Under the pieces are notes generated by a model. The model was not told the DNA's origin. It saw nothing but the letters and a program-made list of their open reading frames with translations, and ran no database searches. Position numbers and translations under genes: made by a program. Below, piece by piece: positions 1,012-18,683 of a stretch of 64,000 bases of DNA (its first letter is position 1; every line of letters starts with the position of its first letter). The DNA comes from Erysipelothrix sp. (GTDB taxonomy: Bacteria > Bacillota_I > Bacilli_A > Erysipelotrichales > Erysipelotrichaceae): assembly GCA_012841625.1 (NCBI GenBank), contig DUUI01000043.1:5151-69150 (forward strand), written 5' to 3'.

Positions 1012-2136
1012 ATGTTACAACAAGAAATGGTAGCAATGATTCTCGCTGGAGGTCGTGGGACACGACTTCATAATTTAACTGAGAAAGTTGCGAAACCTGC
1101 AGTAAGTTTCGGTGGAAAGTATCGAATTGTTGATTTCGCCTTGAGTAATTGCGCAAACTCTGACGTTGATGTTGTAGGAGTTTTAACGCAATATGAGAGT
1201 ATTTTCTTAAACTCTTATGTTGCATTAGGAGGACGCTGGGGCCTAGACGCCAGAGACTCAGGTGTCTTTGTTTTACCACCACGTGAGAAAGAGGAAGGCT
1301 TTGGTTTATACCGCGGAACAGCCGACGCAATAGGGCAAAACATTGATTTTATCGATCAACAAAACCCTGAGTACGTACTCATTTTATCAGGAGATCATAT
1401 CTACAAAATGGATTATTCTTGGATGTTAGCTGAACACAAAAAATCCAAAGCAGAAGCAACCATTGCGGTATTAGAAGTACCACTAAAAGAAGCTTCAAGA
1501 TTTGGGATTATGAACACAGATGAGAATGACCGAATAATTGAATTTGAAGAGAAACCACCAAAACCCAAAAGTAATTTGGCATCAATGGGAATTTACATCT
1601 TTAATTGGCAATCATTGCGCAAAGCACTAATTGCCGATGAAAGAAAAGAAGACTCAAGTCACGACTTTGGAAAGGACATCATTCCATCATTCTTAAATGA
1701 AGGCAAGAAGCTTCAAGCCTATCGTTTCCAAGGGTATTGGAAAGATGTAGGAACAATAGATTCACTTTGGGAAGCAAATATGGATTTATTAGACCCTAAG
1801 AGCGGCATCAATATACGTGATGAAGACTGGAAGATTTACACAGAAGACAAAACTCTTCCACCACATGTCATTACAGAAACTGGTCGCATTAAATCAGCAC
1901 TCGTAAACCAAGGAAGTGTTGTTGCCGGTTCAGTTGAACATTCTGTTATTTTTAATGGAGTAGAAATTGAGGAAGGTGCAGTTGTCAAAGATTCAGTTAT
2001 CTTAGCCAATGTAACCATCAAAAAAGGCGCTAAAATTAATCGTTGCATCATTATGGAAGATTTAACGATACCAGAAGGTGACTACGGTTCACCTAAATCA
2101 GATAATATTGAATTAATCAGTGAGGGAGGCAAATAA
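1012..2136 (+). CDS. glgC: Glucose-1-phosphate adenylyltransferase, catalytic subunit
   Basis: N-terminal [39 protein letters not shown] signature. 374 aa, with a left-handed beta-helix C-terminus. Confidence 0.92.
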
Positions 2137-3248
2137 TGGCACGCGCAATGGGAATTGTTGCCTTTGAAGGCGATAATATTTATGTCGAAGGACTCAGTAA
2201 ACATCGTCCATTTATGTCCATATCATTTTTAGGGCGTTATCGTTTGATTGACTTTGCGATATCAAATTTCACAAATTCAAAGGTAGACGATATTCATATT
2301 TATGTAAAAGAAAAACCACGCTCAGTCTATGAGCATGTCGGAACAGGACGTCACTATAATGTAAACTCTAAACATGGACGCTTAAGAGTAATGTATGGTG
2401 AAGAAGAAATGTCCTCAGCTGTCTATAACACTGATATACGCGCTTATCTTCAAAATGAAAGCTTCATTTGGGAAAATAAGAATGAGTATGTCATCATCGC
2501 ACCAACCCATTTTGTTTATTTGCAAAACTTTACAGAAGTTATGGATAAACACATTGAATCAGGCGCCGATGTCACAGTTTTATACAAGAGCAGCAAAAAC
2601 GCCAAAGATGAATTTGTCGGAGCAGACACGCTAACTCTAGATCGCTCAAAACGAATCACTGGATTTGGTGTCAATCGCGGACAAGCCAATCAACGCAATG
2701 TATCTCTTGAATGCTATGTCATGAAGAAAACTACATTCTTTGAATTATTAAGGAAAGCAGAACAAACAAGCGCTATCTACTGGTTCAAAGACATTCTTGA
2801 GGAGTCAGTCTATGACTATAAGATGCAAGCCTATCAAGTAGGCGGTCAAGTATTAAGCGTAACCGATCTAAAATCTTACTACAATACACATATGGCACTC
2901 TTAGATCCAAAACGCTCAGACTTATTCAATACGAATTGGCCAATCTATACTCGAACCAATGACTCACCTCCAACAATTTACACAGAAACAGCCAATGTGA
3001 CTCAATCATCCATTGCCAACGGAACAGTCATTAAAGGTAAAGTCATAAACTCAGTTGTAGGCCGTAATGTTATTGTTGAACCAGGAGCCATTGTTGAAGA
3101 CAGCATCATCTTACCAAGTGCATATATTGGAGTAGGTGTTCATGTTAAATCAACAATTGTCGACCGTCATGTTCGAGTTGAAAAAACGAAAGAATTAAAC
3201 GGAACAAAGGACAACCCAATTTATATTAATCGACACGATAAAATTTAA
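2136..3248 (+). CDS. glgD: Glucose-1-phosphate adenylyltransferase, GlgD regulatory subunit
   Basis: GlgC paralog lacking the GGxGxR loop (SFLGRYRLIDFAISN). ATG overlaps the glgC stop (TAATG). This is the typical Firmicute glgC-glgD pair. Confidence 0.85.
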   Translation: MARAMGIVAFEGDNIYVEGLSKHRPFMSISFLGRYRLIDFAISNFTNSKVDDIHIYVKEKPRSVYEHVGTGRHYNVNSKHGRLRVMYGEEEMSSAVYNTDIRAYLQNESFIWENKNEYVIIAPTHFVYLQNFTEVMDKHIESGADVTVLYKSSKNAKDEFVGADTLTLDRSKRITGFGVNRGQANQRNVSLECYVMKKTTFFELLRKAEQTSAIYWFKDILEESVYDYKMQAYQVGGQVLSVTDLKSYYNTHMALLDPKRSDLFNTNWPIYTRTNDSPPTIYTETANVTQSSIANGTVIKGKVINSVVGRNVIVEPGAIVEDSIILPSAYIGVGVHVKSTIVDRHVRVEKTKELNGTKDNPIYINRHDKI

Positions 3249-3256
3249 GGAGGCCT

Positions 3257-4687
3257 ATGGAAAAGATATTATTTGTTGCAGCTGAAGGTCTACCCTATAT
3301 TAAATCAGGTGGATTAGCAGATGTTATTGGCTCACTTCCACAAGCAATTCTAAAGAAAGGCTACGATGTCAGAGTCGTTTTGCCTCTGTACAATAAAATC
3401 ATCGACAAATTTTTCGATGAATTAAAACTTGAAACATCCTTTAGAATGAAAGTAGCCAGCTTTGACCAACCAGTCCGAATATTCTCACATGTTTCAAAAG
3501 GTGTGACCTTCTACTTTGTAGAAAATCAAGGCTATTTTGAAAGAGACGGAATGTATGGTTATAGCGATGATGGCGAACGCTATGCATTTTTCCAACACGT
3601 AGTTTATTTTATGATGAATGATTTGAAATATTACCCAGACATTATTCATTCTCATGATTGGCATTCCGGAATGATGGCCGTTCTAGGACGTCACAAATAC
3701 GGACTACAGAATAAAGAAATTGCGAAAGCTAGACATTACTTTACAATTCACAACCTATTATTCCAGGGGAATTTTCCAAGCAGTTTAATTGTTGATCAAT
3801 TTGATTTGCCATATTCACTCTATGAAGATGGTTCCCTAAGATTCCATGACGGTTTATCATTTATGAAAGCAGCAATTGTCTACAGCGATAAGATTAATAC
3901 AGTATCAAATACTTATGCACATGAAATTTTAGGTGAAGCATTTGGTGAAGGGATGCAAGACATCTTACGCTTACGTGAACATGATTTATGGGGTATTGTT
4001 AACGGAATTGATATCGAATCTCAAAACCCTGAAACTGACACAACAATTGCTCAAAACTATACCGTTAAAACATTGACTCAGAAAGAAAAAAATAAACTTG
4101 ATCTTCAAAAACAATTAGGATTAAGAGTTTCAAAAGATGTTTGTCTAGTCGGAATGGTATCACGATTAAGCTTCCAAAAAGGAGTACAACTAATCCTTCT
4201 AAAACTTAAAGACATCATGGGCTTAGATATTCAGTTAGTCATTTTAGGTACTGGGGAACAACAATATGAGTATGATTTAAGACAATCAGAAAATATGTAC
4301 AAACGTCGCATGGTCTACTATGGTGGATATTCAGATGAAATATCACGCAAAATTTATGCGGGAGCTGACATCTTCTTAATGCCATCATTATTTGAACCTT
4401 GTGGAATCTCGCAATTAATTTCAATGAGATACGGAACTCTACCAGTTGTAAGAGAAACAGGTGGTTTAAAGGATACTGTAATTCCTTATAACCAATACGA
4501 TAAGACAGGAACCGGATTTACATTTAGACATTTTAATGAAGAAGATTTCTACTATGTCTTACGCCAAGCTGTGGATCTCTATTATGAGAACCCAACAGAC
4601 TTCAAGGCATTACAGAAAAATGCTATGGCAATTGATGTGTCTTGGGACAAATCAGCTGACCTATACATTCAAATGTACAATGCTTAG
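3257..4687 (+). CDS. glgA: Glycogen synthase (ADP-glucose type)
   Basis: The N-terminus reads ILFVAAEGLPYIKSGGLADVIGSLP, matching the KSGGL motif. The C-terminal GT1 motif is PSLFEPCGISQL. 476 aa. Confidence 0.92.
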   Translation: MEKILFVAAEGLPYIKSGGLADVIGSLPQAILKKGYDVRVVLPLYNKIIDKFFDELKLETSFRMKVASFDQPVRIFSHVSKGVTFYFVENQGYFERDGMYGYSDDGERYAFFQHVVYFMMNDLKYYPDIIHSHDWHSGMMAVLGRHKYGLQNKEIAKARHYFTIHNLLFQGNFPSSLIVDQFDLPYSLYEDGSLRFHDGLSFMKAAIVYSDKINTVSNTYAHEILGEAFGEGMQDILRLREHDLWGIVNGIDIESQNPETDTTIAQNYTVKTLTQKEKNKLDLQKQLGLRVSKDVCLVGMVSRLSFQKGVQLILLKLKDIMGLDIQLVILGTGEQQYEYDLRQSENMYKRRMVYYGGYSDEISRKIYAGADIFLMPSLFEPCGISQLISMRYGTLPVVRETGGLKDTVIPYNQYDKTGTGFTFRHFNEEDFYYVLRQAVDLYYENPTDFKALQKNAMAIDVSWDKSADLYIQMYNA

Positions 4688-4822: not shown

Positions 4823-6022
4823 ATGAGTAAACAAACAGTCCGCGATATCGATGTTGCAGGCAAAAAAGTCTTGGTTAGAGTTGATTTCAACGTCCCGCTC
4901 AAGGACGGTGAAGTGGCGGACGACAACAGAATTAATGCAGCTTTACCAACAATTAATTATTTATTAGAACAGAATGCGAAAATCATTCTTTTATCGCATC
5001 TAGGCAAGGTTGACCATAAAGATCCTCAAAAAACAGAGAGTGATAAGGCTAAGAATAACATGGAACCAGTCGCTGGTAAACTTCAAGAGAAGGTTGATGC
5101 TAAGGTTCATTTTTCGCCAGTTACTCGTGGGCAAGAACTTGATGATGCAGTCGCAGCTTTAAAGGATGGGGAAATATTAGTTGTTCAAAACACACGCTAT
5201 GAAGCGGGTGAAAGCAAAAACGATCCTGAATTAGCGAAGTACTGGGCATCACTTGCGGATGTTTATGTCTCAGATGCATTTGGAAGTGTTCATAGAGCAC
5301 ATGCCTCAACAGTTGGAGTCGCAGATTATTTAGACAGTGCCTCAGGTTTCTTGGTTCAAAAAGAAATTGACGCATTATCAACCGCTTTAGATAATCCAGA
5401 GCGTCCATTTGTTGCCATCTTAGGCGGAGCAAAAGTTTCTGATAAGATTGGACTCATTGAACATCTACTAGATATTGCTGATAAAGTAATTATTGGTGGT
5501 GGAATGGCTTATACATTCTATAAAGCTCAAGGACATGAAGTAGGAACGTCATTACTCGAAGCAGACAAAGTAGAAATCGCCAAAGAAATCATGGAAAAAG
5601 GAAAAGACAAACTTGTCCTGCCTGTTGATACTGTGGTAGCTAAAGAATTCAATGAAACATCTGATTCAAAAACTGTGAAGGCCTCAGAAATTCCAGCTGA
5701 TTATATGGGATTAGACATTGGTCCAGAAACAATTAAATTATTCAGAAAAGAACTTGAAGGTGCCAAGACAGTTGTTTGGAATGGCCCTATGGGCGTCTTT
5801 GAAATGGACAAATTTGCGAATGGAACATTAGAAGTTGCTAAAGCAATTGTTGAACTGCCTAATGCTAATACAATTATTGGTGGTGGTGATTCAGCAGCAG
5901 CAGCAATCAAATTAGGTTTCAAGGATGACTTTACACACATCTCTACCGGAGGCGGAGCATCAATGGAATTCTTAGAAGGAAAAGAATTACCTGGTGTCGC
6001 TGCCATTAAAGAAAGGAAATAA
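4823..6022 (+). CDS. pgk: Phosphoglycerate kinase
   Basis: [10 protein letters not shown] and [21 protein letters not shown] signatures. 399 aa. Confidence 0.95.
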
Positions 6023-11762: not shown

Positions 11763-14123
11763 TTACTTAACGTTATGCTTAACGCGATCTTTTTCTTCGT
11801 TTTGTTTTGCGTTATTGAAACGATCAACTGTTCCAACTAGGTATCCAGTAATGCGTCTAATTCTTTCAATATGTTCATCAGCTGGACGACCACATTGTGG
11901 ACATTCATCATTAATGATTCCTGTATAACCACAAACAGCATCGCGATCGACTGGGTGGTTGATTGCTCCATAACCAATTCCAGCTTTCTTCATCGTTCTG
12001 ACAACTTCCATAAAGGCTTCAACATTATTTGAAGTGTCTCCATCTAGTTCTACATATGAGATATGACCCGCATTAGTTAATGCATGGTAAGGAGCTTCTT
12101 TATAAAGTTTGTCATGAGCTGAGATTTCATAATAAACAGGAATATGGAATGAATTTGTATAATACTCGCGATCTGTAATACCTTCTATGTTACCAAAGAT
12201 TGATTTATCAATTTGAACAAAGCGACCAGATAGACCTTCTGCCGGAGTCGCAATTAATGAGAAGTTTAATTGTGTTTCATCTTTAAACTCATCAATTCGA
12301 TTCTTCATATGATTCACAATTTCAAGACCTTTTTGTTGTGCTTGATCACTTTCGCCATGGTGAACACCCATCATCGATTTTAAGCATTCAGCAAGTCCAA
12401 TGAATCCACAAGTTAAAGTACCAGTTTTTAAGACTTCTCTTAATTCATCATTAGCTCCAAGATTTTTAGAATTCTTCCAAACACCTTGGCCCATTAAGAA
12501 TGGGAAGTTATAGACTTTCTTATTCGCTTGAATTTCAAAACGTGCTAACAATTGATCCCTAACAAGTTCTAGCAAATCATCCAACTCATTATAGAAACCA
12601 TCCCAATCAGGTTTATCATTTAATAAGAGACCATGTTTTATACCTAAACGAGGTAAATTAATTGAAGTAAACGATAAGTTACCACGCCCTGTCACCACTT
12701 CATTAGTAGGATCAGTTACATCACCAATAACACGTGTTCTACACCCCATATAGGTAATCTCAGTATTGAAGTTACCAGGTTTATAGTAAGGAATATTAAA
12801 TGGTGCATCAATAAACGAGAAATTAGGGAATAAGCGCTTCGCACTTACTTCACATGAAAGTTTAAATAAATCATAGTTAGGATCTTCTTCAAAATAACTC
12901 ACACCCTCTTTAATCTTAAAGATAGAAATAGGGAAGATAGGAGTTTCACCTTTACCTAAACCAGCATCTAAAGCTAGTAAGTAATTCTTAGTCACCATAC
13001 GACCTTCAGGTGATACATCAGTACCAAAGTTAATTGAACTAAAAGGCACTTGAGCACCAGCACGTGAATGCATCGTGTTTAAGTTATGAATAAATGCTTC
13101 CATCGCTTGGTAAGTAATACGATTTGTCTTAGCCATCGCAATCTCTTTAGCTTTGGTAAACAAATCTAAATGAGAAGGGAAGTCTTCATGAACACCTGAT
13201 AAGTCAAAATCAATGGTTGTTAAATCATCAACTTTACTAACCAATAACTCCATATTTAAATCAACATCATTTAAGGATACTTGATCAGAAATAATTTGTT
13301 TGAACTGGCGCTTAAATGTATTAAGAACCCCAGGGGCCATATAATAATCAAAGGCAGGAATTGATTGTCCACCATGTTGATCATTTTGATTTGACTGAAT
13401 CGCAATCGCAGCCAAAGCGGTATAAGCCATAATATCTTTTGGTTTTCTTAAATGGCCATGGCCTGTTGAGAAACCATTCTTAAACAATGCTTCTAAATCA
13501 ATTTGACTACAAGTAGTTGTACCCATTGGTAAGAAATCCATGTCATGAATATGAATTTGTCCTGAGTCATGAGCTGCTGCATGAGTTGGCTCAACTAAAT
13601 ATGATTTAGAAAACTCCTTGGCAATAGTACTTCCATATTGAAGCATCATGCCCATAGCACCATCGCCATTAATGTTTGCGTTCTCACGCTTAGAATCTTC
13701 CTCAGCTGCATCCTTAATAGTTAATTGTTCAATCGCCTTAAGGAATTTGTGTTGCTTCGAGAAAAACACACGACGACTTTCATTGCGTCTTAATCGATAC
13801 TGTGAAAATGATTCATACACATCATCATACCCCTGTTTTAAAAGTTGTTTTTCGATGATGTCTTGAATTTCCTCGATCGCAATCTGTGGAGATTCTTTAA
13901 CTTGTACCTCAATTTGTTCCATAACCTTTAAGAAAACAAAATGGGAATCGGCAGCGCTGTAATCGCTATTTGTTATACTATCAAAGCCTTTCTTAATCGC
14001 AACTGCGATTTTCTCTGGCTGGAAAGTGTCCTTTTTATTATTTCTTTTTACTATCACTATTTCAGATTGGTCAAAATCATGAAATATAGGACTGCGATAT
14101 TCTTCATTTTGGTGTAAACTCAT
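11763..14123 (-). CDS. nrdD: Anaerobic ribonucleoside-triphosphate reductase (class III, glycyl radical), with N-terminal ATP-cone
   Basis: ATP-cone VIVKRNNKKDTFQPEKI. C-terminal Zn ribbon CGYTG...CPQCG. Glycyl radical motif RRITGYLVG. 786 aa. Confidence 0.93.
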   Translation of the reverse strand: MSLHQNEEYRSPIFHDFDQSEIVIVKRNNKKDTFQPEKIAVAIKKGFDSITNSDYSAADSHFVFLKVMEQIEVQVKESPQIAIEEIQDIIEKQLLKQGYDDVYESFSQYRLRRNESRRVFFSKQHKFLKAIEQLTIKDAAEEDSKRENANINGDGAMGMMLQYGSTIAKEFSKSYLVEPTHAAAHDSGQIHIHDMDFLPMGTTTCSQIDLEALFKNGFSTGHGHLRKPKDIMAYTALAAIAIQSNQNDQHGGQSIPAFDYYMAPGVLNTFKRQFKQIISDQVSLNDVDLNMELLVSKVDDLTTIDFDLSGVHEDFPSHLDLFTKAKEIAMAKTNRITYQAMEAFIHNLNTMHSRAGAQVPFSSINFGTDVSPEGRMVTKNYLLALDAGLGKGETPIFPISIFKIKEGVSYFEEDPNYDLFKLSCEVSAKRLFPNFSFIDAPFNIPYYKPGNFNTEITYMGCRTRVIGDVTDPTNEVVTGRGNLSFTSINLPRLGIKHGLLLNDKPDWDGFYNELDDLLELVRDQLLARFEIQANKKVYNFPFLMGQGVWKNSKNLGANDELREVLKTGTLTCGFIGLAECLKSMMGVHHGESDQAQQKGLEIVNHMKNRIDEFKDETQLNFSLIATPAEGLSGRFVQIDKSIFGNIEGITDREYYTNSFHIPVYYEISAHDKLYKEAPYHALTNAGHISYVELDGDTSNNVEAFMEVVRTMKKAGIGYGAINHPVDRDAVCGYTGIINDECPQCGRPADEHIERIRRITGYLVGTVDRFNNAKQNEEKDRVKHNVK

Positions 14124-15151: not shown

Positions 15152-15173
15152 GGAGCTGCGGCTCCTTTTCTTT
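15152..15173 (+). terminator. Terminator after the EIIA gene
   Basis: GGAGC-tgcg-GCTCC then TTTTCTTT. Confidence 0.65.
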
Positions 15174-15362: not shown

Positions 15363-15391
15363 TTGAATATTCCAAATAGGTGACTTACAAT
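15363..15391 (+). promoter_or_regulatory. SigA-type promoter of the pfl operon
   Basis: TTGAAT (15363-15368), 17 nt spacer, TACAAT (15386-15391). RBS GGAGGTG before ATG 15423. Confidence 0.5.
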
Positions 15392-15422: not shown

Positions 15423-16139
15423 ATGATTGGAAGAATACACTCAATGGAATCATTTGGAACAGTAGATGGGCCTGGTGTTCGTTTTGTGCTGTTTCTACAA
15501 GGTTGCCCTCTAAGATGCTTATACTGTCACAATCCAGACTCTTGGAATGCTGAAGCAGGAAAAGAAATGACCAGTGACCAAATCGTAACAGAAGTCATGA
15601 AATACAAATCATATATAAAAAACGGAGGAATCACAATCAGTGGTGGTGAACCCCTCCAACAAATAGATTTTGTGATTGAAGTCTTTACGAAATTAAAAGA
15701 ATTAGGAATACACACAGCAGTTGATACTTCTGGTGCACTATTCAATCAATTCACTGAAAAAGTATACGATCGATTATTAGAAGTGACAGACTTATTCTTA
15801 TTGGATTTAAAACATATTAATTCCGATAAACATGAAGAATTAACAAAAGTTAAGAATGAAAACATTCTAAACTTCGCCAGATATCTTAGCGATAAGAAAC
15901 ATCCAGTATGGATCAGACATGTTCTTGTTCCAGGATATACTGATGACCTTAAGGATCTGACAGAATTAAGACAATTTATTGACACCTTAGAAAATGTAGA
16001 AAAAGTAGAAATACTTCCCTACCATGTCATGGGCGTTAATAAATACAAACAAATGGGGTTAACCTATCCACTCGAAGGCTTAGAACCACCAACACAACAA
16101 AGTATTTCCCAAGCATATGATATCGTGGTGAAACAATGA
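15423..16139 (+). CDS. pflA: Pyruvate formate-lyase activating enzyme (radical SAM)
   Basis: ESFGTVDGPGVRFVLFLQGCPLRCLYCHNPDSW plus GGITISGGEP. 238 aa. Confidence 0.92.
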   Translation: MIGRIHSMESFGTVDGPGVRFVLFLQGCPLRCLYCHNPDSWNAEAGKEMTSDQIVTEVMKYKSYIKNGGITISGGEPLQQIDFVIEVFTKLKELGIHTAVDTSGALFNQFTEKVYDRLLEVTDLFLLDLKHINSDKHEELTKVKNENILNFARYLSDKKHPVWIRHVLVPGYTDDLKDLTELRQFIDTLENVEKVEILPYHVMGVNKYKQMGLTYPLEGLEPPTQQSISQAYDIVVKQ

Positions 16140-16411
16140 AAAAAATAGCATTAATACAAACCGACAGCTGTGTCAGCTGTATCAGTCTAGAACATGAAGT
16201 CCTCTCAGTCATGGATAAATTCAAAGAAGTAAGTTTATCCGTCTACAGAACACAGGAAGAGGCACAAGAAATTGTCGATAAATACCAGGTCGAAAAACTA
16301 CCCAGCCTACTTCTCTTAGATAATGATCAATTATTAGGACAAGTAACAGGGTACCAACCTGCATTTATATTAGAAGTTTGGTTAGAAAATTTATTAAAGG
16401 AAGGAAGATAA
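16136..16411 (+). CDS. Thioredoxin-fold protein with CxxC motif
   Basis: 91 aa. [13 protein letters not shown] (C-V-S-C), then a KLPSLLLL cis-Pro-like element and a G near the C-terminus. ATGA overlap with pflA; its stop is 1 nt before the pflB GTG. Confidence 0.6.
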
Positions 16412-16412
16412 A

Positions 16413-18404
16413 GTGAAACAGTATCAGGGATTCAACGAAGGAAAATGGGTTAAAGAAATTGACGTCAGAGATTTTATCATTCAGAACTATACTCTTTATG
16501 AAGGAAATGATGAATTCTTAGAAGGCCCAACAGAAGCAACAAATCAATTATGGAAACAAGTAACAGAACTTAACAAACAAGAAACAGAAGCAGGCGGAGT
16601 ACTAGACGCCGACACATCCTTAGTCTCAACCGTAAGCTCACACGCAGCAGGTTACCTAAATCAAGACTTAGAAAAAATTGTAGGCTTCCAAACAGATAAA
16701 CCATTCAAACGCTCACTCCAACCATTTGGAGGCATTAGAATGTCAGAACTAGCACTTGAGGCTTATGGATTTAAATTAGACGAAGAAGTAAAACACATCT
16801 TTACTGACTACAGAAAAACCCATAACCAAGGTGTTTTCGATGCTTACACAGATGAAATTAAAGCAGCACGACGCACAGGCGTTATTACCGGACTACCGGA
16901 TGCTTATGGACGCGGACGAATTATAGGAGACTACCGCCGAGTAGCACTATACGGAATAGATAAACTAATTGAAGAAAAGCAACACGATTTAAGAATGCGA
17001 AATGGTGTCATGGACGCCGACACAATCCGTGACCGCGAAGAAATCAGTGAACAAATTCGTGCTCTAAAAGATTTAAAGACTATGGCAGCATCATACGGAA
17101 TTGATATATCACAACCAGCCAACAATGCACAAGAAGCCATTCAATTTACATACTTTGGATATCTAGGAGCCATTAAACAACAAAATGGAGCCGCCATGAG
17201 CTTAGGCCGTGTCTCAACATTCCTAGATATTTATATCGAAAGAGATCTAAAAAACGGAACTCTAACAGAGTCACAAGCTCAAGAACTAATCGACCACTTC
17301 GTGATGAAGCTACGCTTAGTTAAATTCATGAGAACTCCAGACTATAATGATTTATTCAGCGGAGATCCAACATGGGTCACCGAATCAATCGGAGGAGTCG
17401 GACTAGATGGAAGACCTCTTGTCACTAAAAACTCATTCAGATTCCTACATACTCTATATAATTTAGGACCAGCTCCAGAACCAAACCTAACTGTTCTATG
17501 GTCAACACAACTACCGCACGAATTCAAGAAATTCTGTGCCAAAGTTTCAATCGAAACATCATCAATTCAATATGAAAACGATGACTTAATGAGAATCGAT
17601 ATGGGAGACGACTACGGAATCGCATGCTGTGTTTCACCACTTAAGATTGGTAAAGATATGCAATTCTTTGGTGCACGCGCAAACCTTGCTAAAGCATTGT
17701 TATACGCAATCAACGGCGGAAAAGACGAAAAATCAAAAGCACAAGTTGCTCCAATGTTTGCTCCAATCACATCAGAAGTTCTAGACTTTGATGAGGTTAT
17801 GGTTAAATATGATCAAGTCCTAGACTGGTTAGCACGAGTTTATACAAGTGCACTAAATATTATTCACTACATGCACGATAAATATTCATATGAATCACTT
17901 CAAATGAGTTTACACGATAGTGACGTCAGACGCTTCTTTGCGACAGGAATCGCAGGACTATCAGTCGTTGCCGATTCATTATCAGCTATTAAATACGCAA
18001 AAGTTAAACCAATCTACGAAGATGGTCTAGCCATTGATTTTGAGATTGAAGGAGAATATCCTCAATACGGAAATAATGATGACCGAGTCGATGAATTAGC
18101 TGTAGATTTAGTCAAGAGATTCATGGATAAAATTCGTAAACAACCAACATATCGCGAATCAATTCAAACCATGTCAGTTCTAACCATTACATCGAATGTT
18201 GTCTATGGTAAGAAAACAGGCGCAACTCCAGACGGACGAAAAGCCGGAGTCGCATTTGCCCCAGGAGCCAATCCAATGCATGGACGCGATAAAACTGGAG
18301 CCTTAGCATCACTTGAATCAGTCAGTAAATTACCATTTGAACATGCTAGAGATGGAATTTCAAACACCTTCTCAATTGTTCCAGATTCATTAGGAAAGGA
18401 GTAA
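16413..18404 (+). CDS. pflB: Pyruvate formate-lyase, large fragment; ends immediately before the glycyl-radical domain
   Basis: [26 protein letters not shown] N-terminus. Catalytic GIACCVSP (Cys-Cys). Ends ...[13 protein letters not shown] where full-length PFLs continue. GTG start after RBS AAGGAAGG. Confidence 0.9.
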
Positions 18405-18408
18405 TCAG

Positions 18409-18642
18409 ATGTCTAGTAAAGTAGAAAACTTAGTTACACTCATTGATGGGTACGTTGAAAATGGAGGTCATCACTTAAATGTGAACGTCTTTGACAAAAA
18501 GACACTCCTAGATGCTCAACAACATCCAGAAAAATATCCACAACTAACAATTCGTGTTTCAGGTTATGCCGTTAACTTCAATAAACTTACAAAAGAACAA
18601 CAAGATGAAGTTATCGCCAGAACAATGCATGAATCAGTCTAA
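18409..18642 (+). CDS. Autonomous glycyl-radical domain protein (PFL C-terminal domain, GrcA/YfiD-like)
   Basis: 77 aa with [10 protein letters not shown]...[26 protein letters not shown], containing the RVSGYAV glycyl radical motif. ATG lies 7 nt after AGGAG embedded in the last pflB codons, in the +1 frame. Confidence 0.8.
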
Positions 18643-18657
18643 TTAAACAAATGAAAA

Positions 18658-18683
18658 GAGAGCTAGAATTAGCCCTCTTTTTT
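18658..18683. terminator. Bidirectional terminator between the pfl operon and the cupin gene
   Basis: GAGAGCTA-gaat-TAGCCCTC (one mismatch) flanked by AAAA and TTTTTT. Confidence 0.65.

Follow-up and report, generated by a model that had tools for sequence, protein, structure and literature searches.

Pyruvate formate-lyase (PFL), a central anaerobic enzyme, is the founding member of the glycyl radical enzymes (GREs) and, as currently annotated, their most widespread representative (PMC13450708). According to the current view, the glycyl-radical domain (GRD) lies within the catalytic chain, and free copies of this domain are emergency spare parts, of which only YfiD and the phage T4 protein Y06I have been validated (PMC13450708, PMC8683613). 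Here, we describe a locus of Erysipelothrix sp. (assembly GCA_012841625.1, contig DUUI01000043.1), in which the catalytic body of PFL and its GRD are encoded by two consecutive open reading frames (ORFs) downstream of the gene for the activating enzyme PflA. The locus is located in a stretch of 64,000 nucleotides (nt; positions 5,151 to 69,150 of the contig), which is referred to as the window, and its comparison with loci of other species argues for a PFL that is made of two polypeptides.

The closest described system is found in Escherichia coli, where PflB is accompanied by YfiD, also named GrcA. Like Y06I of phage T4, YfiD is a free small protein with a PFL-type radical domain containing the motif RVSGYAV; it is a substrate of PflA and inserts into PFL molecules without a usable radical domain. 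YfiD consists of 127 amino acids (aa), possesses a disordered N-terminus of 60 aa, which is needed for binding, and rescues PFL that was made complete and was then cleaved by oxygen at G734 (PMC13450708, PMC8683613). In the system of the window, by contrast, the partner PFL is truncated already at the gene level, at the equivalent of D677. The small protein has a length of 77 aa without a disordered arm, and its start lies 15 residues further towards the N-terminus of the PFL fold. A second precedent, which serves as an experimental proof of principle, is the engineered E. coli variant tPFL(1-695), a body without strand β10, Gly loop and C-terminal helix that is complemented in trans by YfiD and, once activated, is as active as the wild type (PMC8683613, Andorfer et al. 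2021). However, this pair is artificial, the binding of YfiD was too weak to measure and the truncated enzyme was activated 32-fold less (PMC8683613). The natural cut lies 18 residues further upstream (677 versus 695), and the natural small subunit therefore brings an additional conserved helix. Multi-subunit GREs such as benzylsuccinate synthase (αβγ) and 4-hydroxyphenylacetate decarboxylase likewise consist of a large subunit and small accessory subunits; in these enzymes, however, the large catalytic subunit bears the radical glycine, and Fe-S or structural proteins form the small subunits (PMC13450708), whereas in the split PFL the radical would reside on the small subunit itself.

Junction and homology of the two PFL pieces

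The junction comprises three elements, given here in window coordinates:

16413-18404, forward strand: catalytic body of PFL, 663 aa, GTG start, TAA stop at 18402-18404, ending in ...SLGKE
18393-18401, forward strand: Shine-Dalgarno (SD) sequence GGAAAGGAG of the small ORF, found by direct sequence reading inside the last three codons of the body
18409-18642, forward strand: small glycyl-radical ORF, 77 aa, ATG start, TAA stop at 18640-18642, with the loop RVSG52YAV

The AGGAG core of the SD sequence ends 7 nt 5' of the ATG of the small ORF, which is separated from the body by the four bases TCAG (18405-18408) and is read in the +1 frame relative to it. The original prediction, a first reading of the window, had given the positions of the body, its stop codon, the second ATG, the SD sequence and an AAA run at 18395-18397, and all of these were exact on recheck. 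It had also pointed out that removal of one A from this run fuses the frames of the body and the small ORF, which is true; the fused form loses the invariant Lys662 of the LGK motif.

Both pieces match the same family. The body is recognized by TIGR01255 (formate C-acetyltransferase) with 1100 bits (cut-off 994.2) over positions 1-662 of the 744 positions of the profile; the match of the small ORF to this model spans positions 665-743. The Pfam domain Gly_radical is cut by the junction, with profile positions 1-48 in residues 615-662 of the body and positions 52-106 in residues 3-58 of the small ORF. In alignments to PDB sequences, the body ends at D677 of E. coli PflB (1h16), within LGKD677, while residues 6-76 of the small ORF align to residues 683-758 of 1h16 and G52 corresponds to the radical site G734. 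The small ORF is the equivalent of E. coli PflB residues ~678-759; the two pieces abut, and nothing is lost or duplicated. The assignment of the pieces to a PFL body and a radical domain, as proposed in the first reading, is thus borne out by TIGR01255, Gly_radical and the alignment to E. coli PflB, and their summed length of 740 aa, which had been described as similar to that of unsplit PFLs, compares with 741-756 aa in fused Bacillaceae PFLs.

More than 300 columns are invariant across split and fused forms in an alignment of 25 sequences. The body contains the two adjacent catalytic cysteines (equivalents of E. coli C418/C419) as Cys405-Cys406 in the motif GIACCVSP, and A404, C405, C406 and V407 are invariant in the same alignment. 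The body polypeptide lacks the glycyl-radical loop, and RVSGYAV is encoded by the small ORF instead. The identity of the body to full-length Geobacillus PFLs amounts to 75%; in a Foldseek search, it was 68% identical to E. coli PFL structures with a query template modelling (TM) score (TMq) of 0.87; the AlphaFold2 (AF2) model used for this search had a mean confidence (pLDDT) of 72 with low confidence at residues 590-663 and served only for the look-up. The window contains no other PFL, but one body and one GRD.

The small ORF also resembles the known spare parts. It matches residues 68-126 of YfiD (6owr) with an E-value of 1.3e-22, and reaches 92.4 bits with the GrcA model TIGR04365, which is below the cut-off of 170 and covers only positions 67-125 of the 126 positions of the profile. 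The model NF038360 (GrcA3) is matched over positions 3-77 of 78 with 155.2 bits (cut-off 158), and orthologues from both of the operon types described below score between 154.1 and 170.4 bits.

Split PFL loci in other species and their operon architectures

A scan of GTDB with one genome per species yielded more than 580 relatives of the small ORF, of which the best 80 were examined together with 4 kb upstream and 4 kb downstream of the GRD match. The radical domain is a separate ORF in 79 of these 80 loci, so that orthologues in the form of one fused ORF, which the original prediction had named as the finding that would speak against it, are absent from all but one of them. Such a recurrence of the break is far more than chance would give. 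In at least 75 of the 80 loci, a PFL body that breaks right after LGK is located directly upstream. A GrcA3-type gene adjoining a PFL gene and pflA, a combination that is our own criterion and not that of NCBI, is found in the window and in at least 75 of the 80 loci. Two of the loci (L030 and L056) are situated at contig ends. In two others, L017 and L028 (match at 4001-4231), neither a PFL body nor pflA is present within the fetched 4 kb on each side, and the small subunit therefore appears to be encoded away from its partner in some genomes; the carriers are an Erysipelotrichaceae metagenome-assembled genome (MAG) and an Anaeroplasmataceae MAG.

The top matches of the small ORF are proteins of 76-83 aa, which are 79-100% identical to it and include proteins of Dielma fastidiosa, Breznakia, Erysipelothrix sp. 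and other Erysipelotrichaceae. With MAGs labelled as deposited, carriers of the split belong to the Erysipelotrichaceae, Holdemania, Anaeroplasmataceae, Coproplasma and Christensenellaceae, and further comprise Amygdalobacter indicium, many Lachnospiraceae (Blautia, Dorea, Roseburia, Sellimonas, Lachnoclostridium and Enterocloster), Oscillospiraceae and their relatives (Anaerofilum, Allofournierella, Ruthenibacterium and Acutalibacteraceae) and one Gastranaerophilales MAG. Judging by these comparisons, the window is a typical representative of a large group that has so far received little notice. When a library of 1.84 billion representatives was searched with the 77-aa ORF, most matches were metagenomic fragments of 80-440 aa, and the search was uninformative on distribution. 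In one draft genome of Dielma fastidiosa (L004, 2991-5000, GCA_001305055.1), a frameshift near residue 612 further interrupts the body, probably through an error in the draft sequence; the body is intact, with 667 aa, in L001-L003, three metagenome assemblies of this species.

The junction itself is variable. Among 75 non-redundant split loci, frames 0, +1 and +2 of the small ORF relative to the body occur in 23, 25 and 27 cases, respectively, and are hence random, and the distance between the two ORFs ranges from an 8-nt overlap to +344 nt. An SD-like motif is nevertheless found at positions -16 to -3 of the ATG of the small ORF in 74 of the 75 loci. The translational coupling of the two ORFs that had been proposed for the window is therefore tight in its own lineage, but is not general, as the spacing varies from -8 to +344 nt elsewhere.

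The only fused PFL among the 80 loci is that of the Lachnospiraceae MAG SARD11_bin.042 (L071, 1970-4234). Its linker, ...LGKEEQGFLGEPEIDSQINNLVALLDGY..., consists of a stub of the body tail of split Lachnospiraceae PFLs joined to a typical N-terminus of the small ORF, and thus looks like a secondary re-fusion of a split pair or an artefact of the MAG or its assembly; judging by this locus, re-fusion looks to be tolerated. In neighbor-joining (NJ) trees without support values, the free GRDs of both operon types group together and apart from the fused GRDs of Bacillaceae, with mean identities of 78.8% for the free GRDs of both types and of 70.4% and 70.8% to the fused ones. The bodies are not grouped in this way in NJ trees, likewise without support values (mean identities 69.9%, 71.7% and 71.2%), and the trees are compatible with a single as well as with multiple origins of the split.

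In the window, the two PFL genes are the last genes of an operon with the following further elements:

15152-15165, forward strand: terminator-like hairpin after the upstream gene for an EIIA protein of the phosphotransferase system, found by consensus scan as GGAGCTGCGGCTCC followed by TTTTCTTTAC; pattern match only
15363-15391, forward strand: promoter-like candidate TTGAAT-17-TACAAT, 32 nt upstream of pflA, 9/12 matches in a consensus scan
15423-16139, forward strand: pflA, radical SAM activating enzyme, 238 aa, with the cluster motif CPLRCLYC (TIGR02493, Pfam)
16136-16411, forward strand: thioredoxin-fold protein, 91 aa (Pfam Thioredoxin_2, 35.2 bits), with CVSC at residues 12-15 and a cis-Pro loop at P56
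18654-18681, unassigned strand: 12-bp hairpin between the small ORF and a convergent cupin gene; the scan reports the reverse strand, and on the forward strand the stem ends in a T run

The hairpin at 15152-15165 is likely the upstream limit of the operon, which is probably closed by the hairpin at 18654-18681 acting as a bidirectional terminator. Promoter-like sites are no more numerous in the region than in shuffled sequences, and the site at 15363-15391 is a candidate only. PflA matches TIGR02493 (PFLA) with 329.5 bits (cut-off 231.75) and the Pfam domains Radical_SAM and Fer4_12. The thioredoxin-like gene shares 4 nt, including the stop codon, with the end of pflA, and a single nt separates it from the start of the body; the AF2 model of its product (pLDDT 87) has a plain thioredoxin fold with Foldseek TM scores of 0.75-0.83 to thioredoxins.

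The gene order of the window, namely pflA, the gene for the thioredoxin-like CxxC protein, the body and the small ORF with hairpins at both ends, represents the first of two architectures. In this short-ended type, pflA is followed by the thioredoxin-like gene, a body that ends in LGK(D/E) plus 0-4 residues and a GRD of 76-80 aa. Homologs of the thioredoxin-like protein with CxxC, cis-Pro loop and a GYQPEEILELWLDAK-type C-terminus are encoded between pflA and the body in most short-ended loci, a distribution that was taken from the fetched loci, as a word-indexed search gave 4 relatives only. The protein may protect cysteines or aid assembly. In locus L075 (~1442-3793), which stems from a single MAG, the thioredoxin-like ORF runs in frame and without a stop codon into the PFL body, possibly a natural fusion of the two.

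The second, long-tailed type is found mainly in Lachnospiraceae and Oscillospiraceae and has the order body, GRD and pflA without a thioredoxin-like gene. Its bodies possess an acidic, Cys-containing tail of 15-45 aa after LGK, for example ...DDAILFDDITFELEPDCACCEPN... or ...DLDCSNGACASPTLFEGLD...; in L021, L025, L032, L034, L037, L088 and many other loci, a tail of the type ...EPDCACCEPN... or ...DLDCSNGACASPTLFEGLD... is located just upstream of position 4001. Long-tailed loci with a gap of more than 200 nt (up to 345 nt) contain a third ORF of 66-84 aa in the gap:

~3640-3995 in each of the fetched loci L020, L036, L043, L048, L059, L065, L067, L069, L074, L079, L080 and L082: third ORF

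The N-terminus of this third ORF resembles the first ~25 residues of the GRD (for example MENKSVDELIAMIDGFMAEGGGHMNVRV), and its C-terminus reads ...SLDCAxGDxAC(K/R)VPTLFEGLD; it has neither a glycine loop nor a match in NCBIfam. The motif DCxxGxxACxVPTLFEGLD is common to the body tails, and since the same motif ends the third ORF, the tail module appears to be either fused to the body or free-standing.

A further GRE is encoded 1.3 kb upstream of pflA on the reverse strand (11763-14123), the anaerobic ribonucleotide reductase NrdD with 786 aa. As the glycine loop of NrdD (RRITGYLVG) is located on the same chain, only PFL appears to be split in this organism.

Alternative explanations for the split

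A sequencing or assembly error in the AAA run at 18395-18397 could have split an ordinary one-piece pflB, in line with the joining of the frames by a one-A deletion, with the general frequency of homopolymer errors and with the obvious extra frameshift in the body of the Dielma draft L004. However, 44 contigs carry the 77-aa protein in identical form, and four independent assemblies of the same species from different samples (L005-L008; ENA, NCBI and Logan), which share the synteny of the window, differ from it at 6-16 positions over 2.2 kb, all but one of them in the body and none at the junction. In addition, the fused reading would drop the invariant Lys662, and the split recurs in 79 of 80 species with gaps of -8 to +344 nt and random frame offsets. 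Random frames, variable gaps and the presence of own SD sequences therefore exclude a recurrent sequencing error, and this explanation is refuted by the comparative data. A stop codon inside what E. coli, Bacillus and many other bacteria have as a single gene could also mean that a nonsense or frameshift mutation killed pflB and that the downstream ORF is the remnant of a decaying pseudogene. Against this, comparison of the small ORF with three other genera gave non-synonymous rates (dN) of 0.11-0.15, synonymous rates (dS) of at least 1.4 and dN/dS ratios of 0.06-0.10, while dS is saturated in more distant pairs and dN spans 0.11-0.18 overall, which indicates strong purifying selection on the small ORF. 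Purifying selection acts on the body as well, which has an invariant catalytic ACCVS and shares 75% identity with functional full-length PFLs; its homologs keep a length of 663-668 aa from 100% down to ~75% identity, where the full-length Geobacillus and Parageobacillus PFLs of 741-756 aa enter the match list. The start codon and SD sequence of the small ORF are kept in 74 of 75 loci, the small ORF starts exactly at the stop of the body without indels, and neither relaxed selection (dN/dS near 1) nor scattered disabling mutations were seen in the relatives. Decay is thus hardly conceivable, and the original view of a clean split holds, given a junction that is identical in four assemblies and widely conserved, a dN/dS of at most 0.1 and an SD sequence of its own in nearly all loci.

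Two intact pieces could still be joined during translation: a programmed +1 frameshift or a stop bypass would yield a fused PFL of 740 aa, and the window, with ORFs that are 4 nt apart in adjacent frames and an A-rich, slippery-looking run at the junction, is suggestive of such recoding. Yet the relation of the frames is random over the 75 loci, gaps reach 344 nt and some of them contain a third ORF, the small ORFs have their own ATG and, in 74 of 75 cases, an SD-like motif, and the junction sequence is unconserved beyond coding constraint. The combination of random frames, variable gaps and own SD sequences therefore excludes a conserved recoding signal and shows independent translation initiation of the small ORF, which makes recoding very improbable. 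Inteins and trans-splicing are ruled out, as the two pieces adjoin precisely and the junction contains no additional sequence. Finally, the small protein could be a true spare part like GrcA/YfiD for a full-length PFL encoded elsewhere, with the truncated body as a secondary acceptor or in another role. The NCBIfam name "autonomous glycyl radical cofactor GrcA3" with the short name "rad_fix" points in this direction, as do the small genes that lie apart from any body in L017 and L028; the analysis covered 64 kb of the genome, and E. coli GrcA is described as also activating inactive full-length PflB in vivo (Kammel & Sawers 2022, via PMC13450708). However, the body has no glycine loop and therefore needs a donor GRD whatever else the genome encodes, the genes of body and GRD lie side by side in at least 75 of the 80 species, under two operon layouts, and no other PFL is present in the window. 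Moreover, the pieces are exactly complementary, whereas YfiD has a disordered N-terminus of 60 aa and duplicates a part that PFL retains. A role purely as a spare part is consequently unlikely.

Proposed mechanism and its significance

The preferred explanation is that the locus encodes a functional PFL of two polypeptides, which is co-transcribed with its activase, and the comparative evidence makes this highly probable. In such an enzyme, the 663-aa body would bring the barrel and the thiyl-radical pair Cys405/Cys406 without a glycine loop, and the 77-aa protein would contribute the missing end of the fold, that is, the helix NLVTLIDGY, the strand HLNVNV, the RVSG52YAV loop and the C-terminal helix. 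The PFL activating enzyme (PFL-AE) recognizes the RVSGYAV loop and acts on peptides as well as on free YfiD; RVSGYAV is reportedly the recognized peptide in the work of Frey (1994) and Vey (2008). The small ORF carries this sequence exactly, and PflA would take hydrogen from G52 on either the free or the docked peptide. Docking could occur via the HLNVNV strand, the Gly loop and the C-terminal helix together with an extra N-terminal helix, (V/I)(D/E)NLVxLIDGY, which is conserved in GrcA3-type proteins and absent from the structured part of YfiD. In PFL, the glycyl radical generates the thiyl radical of Cys419; with the radical peptide docked in the barrel, G52• would oxidize Cys406, and catalysis would then proceed as in a one-piece PFL. 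Cleavage by oxygen at the radical glycine would cost only a cheap, exchangeable subunit of 77 aa, thereby sparing the 663-aa body. As the body would depend on it, the small protein would be indispensable to the enzyme, unlike an optional spare part.

That the split pair is the sole and obligate PFL of its carriers, with subunit exchange as a mode of repair, is a stronger claim, for which the balance tips slightly towards yes. With similarly restrained confidence, we favor the broader view that PFL is natively heteromeric in a large part of the Bacillota: its radical cofactor would be a dissociable, separately translated subunit of ~77-80 aa, which PflA would activate off the enzyme and which would be replaced when damaged by oxygen, and the lineage-specific partners would be dedicated factors. 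This view spans the Erysipelotrichaceae as well as the abundant gut Lachnospiraceae and Oscillospiraceae, and turns "GrcA3" from a repair extra into an obligate subunit. The partners, with roles in assembly or protection, would be the thioredoxin-fold CxxC protein in the window type and the Cys-rich acidic tail or the third small ORF in the other type.

Several points weigh against an obligate two-subunit PFL. Support for this locus comes from sequence and comparison, and the 64 kb that were seen leave room for a full-length PFL elsewhere in the genome. The small gene stands without a body within 4 kb upstream in L017 and L028, and the NCBI names, both the full and the short one, imply a role in repair. 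Furthermore, the engineered truncated PFL of E. coli bound YfiD poorly and was activated 32-fold less (PMC8683613); efficient assembly is therefore assumed for the natural pair and would need further features, for example the conserved N-terminal helix of GrcA3.

The components of this system have already entered databases. NF038360 probably describes the family to which the window protein belongs, although the score of the latter (155.2 bits) is 3 bits under the cut-off of 158, and several database records of relatives of the small ORF bear the name GrcA3; this name suggests a function in repair rather than that of an obligate subunit of a PFL without GRD. The PDB entries 38la and 38lb ("Formate acetyltransferase") contain natural GRD-less PFL bodies with four chains each and an N-terminal tag of ~21 residues. 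The 38la protein (687 aa including the ~21-aa tag) ends in ...SLVPNSLGKE plus one residue and is ~76% identical to the body of the window and 94% identical to that of Amygdalobacter indicium, while 38lb has 54 residues beyond LGK and appears to be the long-tailed form. When the 77-aa ORF was searched against PDB sequences, neither entry yielded a chain for the small subunit. Since both entries are absent from the PDB copy of Foldseek, which comprises entries released up to 2026-04-08, they are probably newer, and a full-text search found no papers citing them; these fresh entries suggest that others are already at work on GRD-less PFL. A GRE superfamily review of June 2026 mentions only spare parts of the YfiD/GrcA type (PMC13450708), and a natural PFL without its own radical domain is undescribed in searchable full text, a search outside of which most subscription journals lie. 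The original prediction had treated the split as an arrangement not known to be described, and this still applies to the literature, in which no paper was found, but not to the databases, which already hold NF038360, 38la and 38lb. Provisionally, the pieces are thus catalogued, whereas the biology of a PFL that is unable to carry its own radical is undescribed.

If the proposed mechanism is true, delivery of a glycyl radical in trans would belong to the regular operation of the enzyme, beyond its use for repair. The split PFLs would then provide a natural system in which the installation of the radical by PflA is separated from the docking of the radical domain, both of which are open mechanistic questions. 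They would also suggest a cheap strategy of oxygen tolerance, which could be used in the engineering of GREs. Furthermore, the annotation of PFL and its quantification in metagenomes would be affected, as such genes can be misread where length filters or "GrcA" labels are applied.

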